Source: Thermoanaerobaculia bacterium
GTDB lineage: Bacteria > Acidobacteriota > Thermoanaerobaculia > Multivoradales > SZUA-115
Length of the DNA: 64,000 nucleotides
Assembly: GCA_046331405.1 (NCBI GenBank)
Contig: JAXLQX010000004.1
Coordinates: 216,207 to 280,206 of the forward strand
Direction of reading: 5' to 3'
The position numbers and the translations under genes are program-made. The notes under the pieces were generated by a model that saw only the letters and a list, made by a program, of their open reading frames with translations, was not told the DNA's origin and searched no databases. This document shows positions 48,613 through 49,236 of the stretch, in pieces (positions within the stretch are counted from its first letter, which is position 1; each line of letters opens with the position of its first letter).

Positions 48613-49236
48613 TCAGGTGCCGAGCAGCACGCTCGGGATGTTGGCCCGCTCGGTGGGCGGGTCGTAGGTGGGCACCGCCCAGAACACGCCCAGCTCGGGA
48701 ACCCGGTAGACGGCCACATCCCGGTCCGCGCCGGAGCCGCGGTCGTTCCAGATCAGCCCGCTGCCGTTGGCCGGATCGCCCAGGGCCACGCTGGTGGCCA
48801 GGTCGTAGCGCAGGCAGCGCAGCTCGGGGATATTCGGCGGGCTGTCGTGGCCCTCGGCCACCACATGGCCGCAGGTGACGTAGCCGAAGGGTGCCACTGG
48901 AGCCCAGAAGGAGCCGTCCTTGTCTGCGCCAGAGCCCTTGTCGGCCCACACCCTGGCGAAGGTCTGAGGCCTCGCCAACGCCGGATGGTCGGGGTCGTCG
49001 TTGTCCACCACCCGCATCACCAGCACGGTGCCGTTGGGTGCATTGTAGTTGCCCTGGCCGTAGTCGCCCAGGAGGAACCAGCCCGCGGGCACCACCGGGC
49101 GGTAGAAGGCGCCGTCCATGCCGGCGCCAGAGCCCTTGTCGGTCCACACCTTGACGAACTGGTTGACGGTGCTGAACTCGAGGGTCGGGGGGAGGGCTAC
49201 CAGGCTCTGCGATTCGACCACGAGACTGCGAATCAT
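48613..49236 (-). CDS. Vps62/DUF946-like repeat protein (207 aa), directly upstream of and co-oriented with the RHS gene
   Basis: ATG 49236 preceded by GAGAGGAG. Three internal repeats VWTDKGSGAGMDGAFYRPVVPAGW / VWADKGSGADKDGSFWAPVAPFGY / IWNDRGSGADRDVAVYRVPELGVFW resemble the W-x-D-x-GSGA...W-P repeat of Vps62/DUF946; assignment from memory of the motif. No signal peptide. Confidence 0.45.
   Translation of the reverse strand: MIRSLVVESQSLVALPPTLEFSTVNQFVKVWTDKGSGAGMDGAFYRPVVPAGWFLLGDYGQGNYNAPNGTVLVMRVVDNDDPDHPALARPQTFARVWADKGSGADKDGSFWAPVAPFGYVTCGHVVAEGHDSPPNIPELRCLRYDLATSVALGDPANGSGLIWNDRGSGADRDVAVYRVPELGVFWAVPTYDPPTERANIPSVLLGT

Follow-up and report, generated by a model that had tools for sequence, protein, structure and literature searches.

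We analyzed a window of 64,000 nucleotides (nt), that is, the whole stretch taken from a Thermoanaerobaculia bacterium (assembly GCA_046331405.1, contig JAXLQX010000004.1, positions 216,207 to 280,206), and focused on a small gene that encodes a protein of 207 amino acids (aa) and on the large RHS toxin gene directly downstream of it. The features of the locus are listed below, with positions counted from the first letter of the window.

48613..49236, minus strand: gene of the predicted beta-tripod protein (Pfam label Vps62), 207 aa plus stop by translation, leaderless and stand-alone
49114..49146, minus strand: motif 1, WTDKGSGAGMD, residues 31-41, D-x-G-S/T-G-x3-D signature of predicted beta-tripod leg 1
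48916..48948, minus strand: motif 2, WADKGSGADKD, residues 97-107, predicted beta-tripod leg 2
48718..48750, minus strand: motif 3, WNDRGSGADRD, residues 163-173, predicted beta-tripod leg 3
49244..49251, minus strand: Shine-Dalgarno-like GAGAGGAG, 7 nt before the small-gene ATG at 49236
48575..48604, minus strand: GC-rich perfect 13-bp hairpin (RNA fold), just 3' of the small-gene stop and within the 91-nt spacer
48528..48535, minus strand: Shine-Dalgarno-like GAGAGGAG, 6 nt before the RHS ATG at 48521
41526..48521, minus strand: gene of a TcdB/TcaC-type polymorphic toxin, 2331 aa (translation, Pfam, NCBIfam Rhs_assc_core)
41526..41906, minus strand: toxin domain at the C-terminal end of the RHS product (residues 2206-2331 plus stop), a tail of 126 residues without a Pfam match

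The reading frame of the small gene can be extended upstream to 49536, which would give a protein of 307 aa. The GC content at third codon positions (GC3) is 0.91 within the 207-aa frame versus 0.61 in this in-frame extension. Because of the drop in GC3, we took the ATG at 49236 as the real start of the small gene and rejected the 307-aa alternative as an artefact. The codon-position GC of the 207-aa frame is typical of coding sequence, in a window with a GC content of 70%. The 90% identity cluster of the protein includes MFN7961921.1, from a metagenome-assembled genome of Thermoanaerobaculia. A W-x-D-[KR]-GSGA-x-x-D motif occurs three times in the protein with a period of exactly 66 residues, and alignments of one unit against another scored 18, 7.3 and 8.1 standard deviations over shuffled sequences, with none of 1000 shuffles as high. 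The original prediction, made from the letters and their translations, had seen the three motifs correctly. The repeats are nevertheless not short and head-to-tail, as its term "tandem repeats" could suggest, but carry one motif per unit of about 66 residues, and the x-P-V ending that it had given to the pattern does not hold for the third unit, which reads VYRVP instead. The N-terminus, MIRSLVVESQSLVALPP, has no signal-peptide-like hydrophobic core, and the maximum mean Kyte-Doolittle hydropathy over 11 residues is 1.56 for the 207-aa protein versus 2.15 for the RHS leader; the signal peptide of the RHS protein was judged by eye and by hydropathy only, and its absence from the small protein by this hydropathy scale. 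The predicted length of 207 aa and the absence of a signal peptide were borne out by the translation and the hydropathy.

A likeness to the Vps62/DUF946 family had been proposed for the small protein, with a search for PF06101 as the check, and this search returned a strong match (E=2.6e-21; score 76.1 bits, curated cut-off 22.1 bits). PF06101 (IPR009291) is the sole Pfam family matched by the protein and is present in all but two of its 91 homologues, and NCBIfam held no model for it. A sequence search of the PDB returned one relative, GNIP1Aa (6FBM), at its C-terminal residues 316-506 (E=1e-19). A confident AlphaFold2 model computed from 42 homologues (predicted local distance difference test, pLDDT, 91.7; predicted template modelling score, pTM, 0.86) had the same protein, 6fbm_A, as its top Foldseek match (E=2e-14, TM 0.72 (TMq), 30% identity over 188 columns). 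Next, and much weaker, came the trefoil at the C-terminus of pleurotolysin B (E of about 1e-4 to 3e-5, TM of about 0.45). In the literature, the beta-tripod signature is a D-x-G-S/T-G-x3-D motif in three pseudo-symmetric subdomains (PMC8624791), the domain is assigned target recognition ahead of pore formation (PMC8624791, PMC10683392, PMC7613979), and bacterial Vps62 hits are treated as the beta-tripod of GNIP1Aa-type toxins, the link to yeast being put down to a spurious alignment (PMC7613979, PMC8624791). The 207-aa protein carries the three motifs of this family (DKGSGAGMD, DKGSGADKD and DRGSGADRD, starting at residues 33, 99 and 165), and its predicted model has the three-dimensional fold of 6FBM. 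Since the PDB and fold searches agree with the literature, the protein is, as far as a predicted model can tell, a free-standing beta-tripod domain, and "Vps62" is merely a database label. The beta-tripod is a three-legged, pseudo-threefold beta fold in which each leg holds one D-x-G-S/T-G-x3-D loop, and GNIP1Aa was the protein in which it was originally recognised. Orthology to yeast Vps62, with a sorting role, was rejected: only profile positions 29-162 of 541 were matched, and the host is a bacterium, besides the spurious alignment to which the label has been attributed in PMC7613979.

The RHS protein reads from a signal-peptide-like leader through SpvB (residues 34-238), an FG-GAP propeller and TcdB_toxin_midN (about 339-836), RHS repeats and the Rhs-associated core (about 1023-1910), a Gly/Ala-rich hydrophobic stretch and PT-HINT (2073-2205) to its tail. 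With its signal peptide assigned by eye and hydropathy, it fits exactly the definition that Zhang et al. give for the TcdB/TcaC-type polymorphic toxin in their Table 1 (2012, PMC3482391): signal peptide, SpvB, integrin-like propeller, RHS, HINT and an exchangeable tip. Pfam returned nothing at E<=10 for residues 2206-2331, and the tail is not conserved in homologous loci, even in a homologue that is 65% identical (locus L001); tblastn alignments of the window RHS protein to its homologues end near residue 2211. The tail contains a DGRHRF motif, which we take to resemble the DGxHR motif of the ParB/sulfiredoxin type. The original prediction had stated that no standard Rhs accessory (PAAR, EagR/DUF1795, DUF4123) is present, and Pfam agreed: the RHS protein has no PAAR domain, and neither DUF1795, DUF4123 nor any Pfam family related to the type VI secretion system (T6SS) was found in the ten neighbouring genes scanned.

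The RHS gene starts with an ATG at 48521 (not 48522) on the same strand as the small gene, so that the spacer is the 91 nt that had been predicted. An identical ribosome-binding site had also been claimed for both genes. The same octamer, GAGAGGAG, does stand before both ATGs, but at distances of 7 and 6 nt rather than at one common distance, and it is no rarer in the window than chance would have it (6 observed, 6.85 expected). Related loci carry other Shine-Dalgarno variants, and GAGAGGAG itself is not conserved. As an argument for co-expression, this shared site carries no weight, the octamer being an ordinary good Shine-Dalgarno sequence and not a regulatory signature. The hairpin at 48575-48604 is without a T-run and was not called by a simple terminator scan; its role might be weak termination, attenuation or stabilisation of the mRNA. 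Comparable hairpins are readable in the spacers of L002, L003, L005 and L007, and not in the short-spacer loci L001, L009, L016 and L019, whose spacers measure only about 16-42 nt. Where they recur, these hairpins could set the ratio of the small partner to the toxin by partial termination or mRNA stabilisation. From the gene arrangement, an operon is likely for the family, including co-transcription at the window locus.

The pairing of the two genes is not restricted to the window. Loci were scanned with 13 close sequences, which gave 6 genome and 15 metagenome loci (handles beginning with L) in a small survey with narrow degenerate patterns; we counted 16 informative loci, L008 being the same sequence as L001. 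With the window RHS protein as query, tblastn placed an RHS homologue immediately downstream of the small gene and on its strand in nine of these 16 loci, namely in Thermoanaerobaculia (L001/L008 and L003), in Blastocatellia (L005), in the culture-collection strain Pyxidicoccus fallax DSM 14698 of the Myxococcota (L002) and in the metagenome loci L007, L009, L014, L016 and L019. The identity of their beta-tripod proteins to the window protein ranges from 73% down to about 37%. The linkage to SpvB/RHS genes in other genomes, which the original prediction had proposed to survey, is thus conserved in Acidobacteriota (Thermoanaerobaculia, Blastocatellia), Myxococcota and metagenomes. That prediction had named two outcomes as speaking against it, no similarity to PF06101 and no conserved linkage to RHS genes; we checked both, and both came out in its favour.

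A reverse search, in which residues 1-900 of the RHS protein served as query, recovered the pairing from the toxin side. The best among the matches listed, P0235 and P0236, both have one or more Vps62 genes directly upstream: on their contigs, a tandem array of three such genes (L022) or a single one (L024) is followed by a B-like and then by a C-like gene. All matches in this search were at most 38% identical, the closest homologues being absent from the list, and L031 and L032 came without upstream sequence. Since four more distant SpvB-RHS genes (L025, L026, L027, L033) have no Vps62 neighbour, the partnership belongs to one subgroup of SpvB-RHS toxins. At L025 (1055-8558), the distant SpvB-FG-GAP-RHS gene without a beta-tripod partner is immediately preceded by a secretin gene and by two genes of the pseudopilin-like kind (N_methyl), a gene order suggesting that this branch may be exported through a type II or type IV pilus-like route. 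A search of plasmids returned only distant matches, at about 30% identity and with no RHS context.

In an all-against-all comparison of open reading frames, only the small gene and the RHS gene were common to the loci, and their fixed order and strand recur in 12 loci, counting the window, in neighbourhoods that are otherwise unrelated. The pairwise identities of the two proteins correlate across ten loci (r=0.83; Mantel test, 0/5000), and the P. fallax pair is nearest to a Thermoanaerobaculia pair, which indicates that the cassette was transferred between phyla. Between genomes and between phyla, the two genes travel together, and their proteins co-diverge. We hold it as close to certain that the beta-tripod protein belongs to a conserved two-gene cassette with the RHS toxin, with the small gene first. 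In the literature on the beta-tripod or Vps62 domain, covered mainly at the level of titles and abstracts, no link to RHS or Tc toxins appeared, and in a full-text search, the two large surveys that cover polymorphic toxins and Tc loci (PMC3482391, PMC7861908) were not among the papers that name the domain as Vps62, DUF946, PF06101, beta-tripod or GNIP1Aa. Domain and toxin type had both been described before; what appears to be new and undescribed is their conserved pairing.

The other genes around the pair were scanned within about 10 kb on each side. They include carB, genes for an unknown secreted protein, an unknown 164-aa protein, an aldo-keto reductase, a LamG protein and an S8 peptidase, and others. 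A convergent gene for a 726-aa protein with a signal peptide (39295-41475, plus strand) ends 50 nt from the RHS stop; neither its product nor the divergent 164-aa open reading frame matched Pfam. Downstream of the RHS stop codon (39295-41525), there is no convincing candidate for an immunity gene, and a 125-aa open reading frame on the minus strand (40956-41333) resembles a shadow frame. No TcA-like gene was found among the scanned neighbours, and none is common to the related loci. A few kb upstream (52559-56092), neither the gene for the LamG-like protein (Laminin_G_3) nor that for a large S8 subtilase, which has PA and fn3 domains, is conserved in related loci.

Relatives of the small protein outside the cassette are informative about its possible role. 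The domain is found at the end of a 2263-aa adhesin-like surface protein with DUF7507/DUF11 repeats and a signal peptide (L004, 3827-10618), at the end of a flavin amine oxidase with a twin-arginine translocation (TAT) signal (L012, 8285-10552), and between Big_2 and Toxin_10 in a lipoprotein (L018, 635-2230), these being close relatives at 34-48% identity. Further away, the fusion partners are Toxin_10, anthrax-PA-like Binary_toxB, caspase and peptidoglycan-binding domains, and the fused proteins whose N-termini were read carry Sec, TAT or lipoprotein signals. The relatives are almost always accessory modules on secreted toxins, adhesins or enzymes, and the beta-tripod is a mobile module on diverse secreted effectors. 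What the close relatives are fused to speaks more for a module of binding or targeting than for a chaperone. At L022 (3775-13485, GCA_003427375.1), the tandem genes are three leaderless beta-tripod paralogues in which DxGSGxxxD is lost or degenerate in most legs, and such tandem, diverging paralogues would be the pattern expected of specificity modules. The B-like (1387 aa) and C-like (887 aa) genes of this locus overlap by 44 nt and are followed by a possible immunity gene of 218 aa; the tail of the B gene looks out of frame, and the two may be a fused BC gene with a frameshift. As a separate observation, a 437-aa Vps62-related protein is encoded about 1.2 kb upstream of an aegerolysin gene on a Vibrio campbellii plasmid (L029, NZ_CP050482.1, 5932-8827), and the pair occurs on several V. 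campbellii plasmids, which suggests another multi-component toxin that contains a beta-tripod.

Because close relatives are fused to secreted toxins and adhesins, we propose that the small protein acts in trans as the target-recognition subunit of the RHS toxin, with a probability of roughly 0.45. Target or receptor recognition is supported indirectly, by analogy, through the fusion partners of the relatives and the literature on GNIP1Aa. The beta-tripod protein would be made together with the toxin and would bind its cocoon non-covalently, as a small stand-in for TcA in its receptor-binding role in the ABC Tc toxins, and in parallel to the role of the covalently attached beta-tripods in GNIP1Aa-type and Toxin_10-type pore formers. 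It would then tether the loaded cocoon to a ligand on the surface of the target cell, after which autoproteolysis by HINT and RHS and the hydrophobic pre-toxin segment would deliver the C-terminal toxin. The leaderless beta-tripod is assumed to leave the producing cell by co-export or by lysis, as leaderless Tc subunits do. A stronger version, which we advance only tentatively, makes the beta-tripod a minimal "A component" for an A-less BC cocoon, which would dock on it (perhaps on the gate of the FG-GAP propeller), bind the target ligand, set the specificity and trigger release. An accessory role for the toxin, as the original prediction had it, is well supported by comparative genomics; the choice among adaptor, chaperone and targeting is what we infer.

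Several observations weigh against recognition in trans. The domain is not dedicated to RHS toxins, with seven of the 16 informative relatives lacking an RHS link: besides the three fusion loci L004, L012 and L018, these are L006, with two tandem copies beside a secreted chitinase, and L010, L013 and L015, with stand-alone copies among neighbours of unknown function. No fusion of a beta-tripod to SpvB/RHS was seen in the 15 multi-domain proteins from the best 150 of 3350 profile matches, nor in the Pfam lists of 120 listed RHS-type matches. The toxin tips resemble nucleases and deaminases of bacterial competition, yet the sole experimentally studied beta-tripod, that of GNIP1Aa, targets the insect gut. 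The GC-rich hairpin between the genes makes co-transcription less certain at the window locus. Finally, all RHS-linked copies are leaderless, while a leader is present on the RHS partner of the window and of most close relatives (present in the window, L001-L003, L007, L009, L019 and L022; absent in L005, L014, L016 and L024). Without an unconventional export of the small protein, the two products may thus reach different compartments. This difficulty of topology is not fatal to recognition in trans, because leaderless Tc subunits are secreted in a partner-dependent way: secretion of leaderless TcA depends on its C partner, and the subunits need each other for secretion (PMC3789776).

The same leaderless copies keep alive a cytoplasmic role as chaperone or export adaptor, in which the small protein would bind the nascent or folded RHS protein in the producing cell and stabilise it or hand it to export, like Eag/DUF1795 or DUF4123 proteins. 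Every RHS-linked copy lacks a signal peptide, the two genes are tightly linked and co-diverge, both partners are leaderless and hence in the same cytoplasm in L005, L014, L016 and L024, and the interdependence of Tc subunits for secretion (PMC3789776) would suit a partner of this kind. However, in the fusions whose N-termini were read, the beta-tripod belongs to a protein that has a Sec, TAT or lipoprotein signal or is placed beside toxin modules, none of the 15 multi-domain profile matches scanned carries a chaperone-type domain, and the sole role studied for a beta-tripod is target recognition. In addition, a Sec-exported protein of 2331 aa crosses the membrane unfolded, which is a poor fit with a partner that binds folded beta structure, and the small protein has no similarity to known families of Rhs chaperones. 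We consider this role unlikely, although it fares best among the alternatives.

A lectin-like or toxin-helper protein that works independently, merely co-located or co-regulated with the toxin in an antagonism island and with no physical partnership, would account for the stand-alone and tandem copies without RHS (L006 by its chitinase, L010, L013, L015) and for the Vps62-related gene near the aegerolysin gene on Vibrio plasmids, and the hairpin after the stop codon could end a transcript of the small gene. Such independence is distinctly unlikely in view of the fixed order and common strand in 12 loci with unrelated neighbourhoods and spacers down to about 16-42 nt, of the co-divergence with the N-terminal region of the RHS protein, and of the reverse search that recovered the pairing.

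In Tc toxins, the propeller of TcB is both the gate and the docking site of TcA. The window locus has a propeller and no TcA, and by analogy the beta-tripod might dock on the FG-GAP propeller gate within the producing cell and keep the toxin enclosed until release, as a gatekeeper that protects the producer; the lack of a convincing immunity gene downstream of the window toxin would agree with this. The idea is pure analogy and we rate it as improbable, since L003 and L022 carry a short gene downstream on the same strand that could encode immunity and the fusions put the domain on extracellular proteins.

The variable ends of the toxins bear on the weakest alternative. As seen in a comparison of tails, the tips after HINT are swapped between otherwise similar RHS proteins: by eye, from motifs, they are NucA/NucB-like DNases (DRDEYPPAMF) in L002, L003 and L022, deaminase-like (CxE...PCxxC) in L001 and WHH nuclease-like in L009, and the RHS proteins of L005 and L016 are without HINT and end in long Gly/Ala-rich hydrophobic regions. 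The small protein remains 56-73% identical across loci with unrelated tips. In L003 and L022, the short gene on the same strand lies just downstream of the toxin. That the small protein is itself the immunity protein of the RHS toxin, as its place beside a polymorphic toxin gene and the missing downstream candidate in the window might suggest, is effectively refuted, since its gene lies upstream of the toxin and not downstream, its sequence is kept where the C-terminal toxin domains differ and co-varies with the conserved N-terminal part of the toxin, and its predicted fold is that of a toxin accessory domain.

Recognition in trans can be compared with several known systems. The window protein shares with GNIP1Aa, the insecticidal MACPF protein of Chromobacterium piscinae (6FBM), the predicted fold, the three D-x-G-S/T-G-x3-D units and the association with a toxin. 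In GNIP1Aa, the domain is covalently attached, C-terminal to a pore-forming MACPF domain, whereas here it is a separate protein of 207 aa, and the associated toxin is an RHS cocoon delivering an enzymatic domain and not a pore former. Pleurotolysin A/B and related pairs of aegerolysin and MACPF pore formers likewise split membrane recognition and effector between two proteins, but there the related domain is on the effector and the separate small partner is the aegerolysin, and the structural similarity is weak.

With the Tc (ABC) toxins of Photorhabdus, Xenorhabdus and Yersinia, the locus shares the TcB-TcC architecture of the RHS protein, with a variable C-terminal toxin, and an order of small partner, then B, then C, with B and C called as two genes in L022 and L024; leaderless Tc subunits also depend on partners for release. 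Unlike these systems, the locus has no gene for TcA, the pentameric translocator of about 2500 aa, and a beta-tripod of 23 kDa cannot form a translocation channel; the BC protein of the window moreover has a Sec-type leader and PT-HINT, features of bacterial polymorphic toxins. Among the TcdB/TcaC-type polymorphic toxins (PMC3482391), the window RHS protein finds its place, and the upstream beta-tripod partner is the difference. The accessories of T6SS Rhs proteins (EagR/DUF1795, DUF4123, DUF2169, PAAR) resemble it in being encoded by a small gene directly upstream of rhs and conserved with the N-terminal part of the Rhs protein. In contrast to them, the small protein has no similarity in sequence or fold to these families, and with no PAAR in the RHS protein and no T6SS Pfam family in the ten neighbours, we did not place the pair among T6SS Rhs systems.

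Many bacteria encode SpvB-RHS (BC-like) cocoon toxins without a TcA translocator and without a T6SS. The beta-tripod is a concrete candidate for the recognition step in such BC-type RHS toxins. If the stronger version, with the beta-tripod as a minimal "A component", is true, soil Acidobacteriota and Myxococcota would possess a new RHS delivery system, made of two components and dependent on neither TcA nor T6SS. If recognition in trans is confirmed, the small protein would define a new class of accessory for RHS toxins and give a function to the widespread bacterial annotation "Vps62-related protein", and it could serve as a swappable targeting module for engineered protein delivery.

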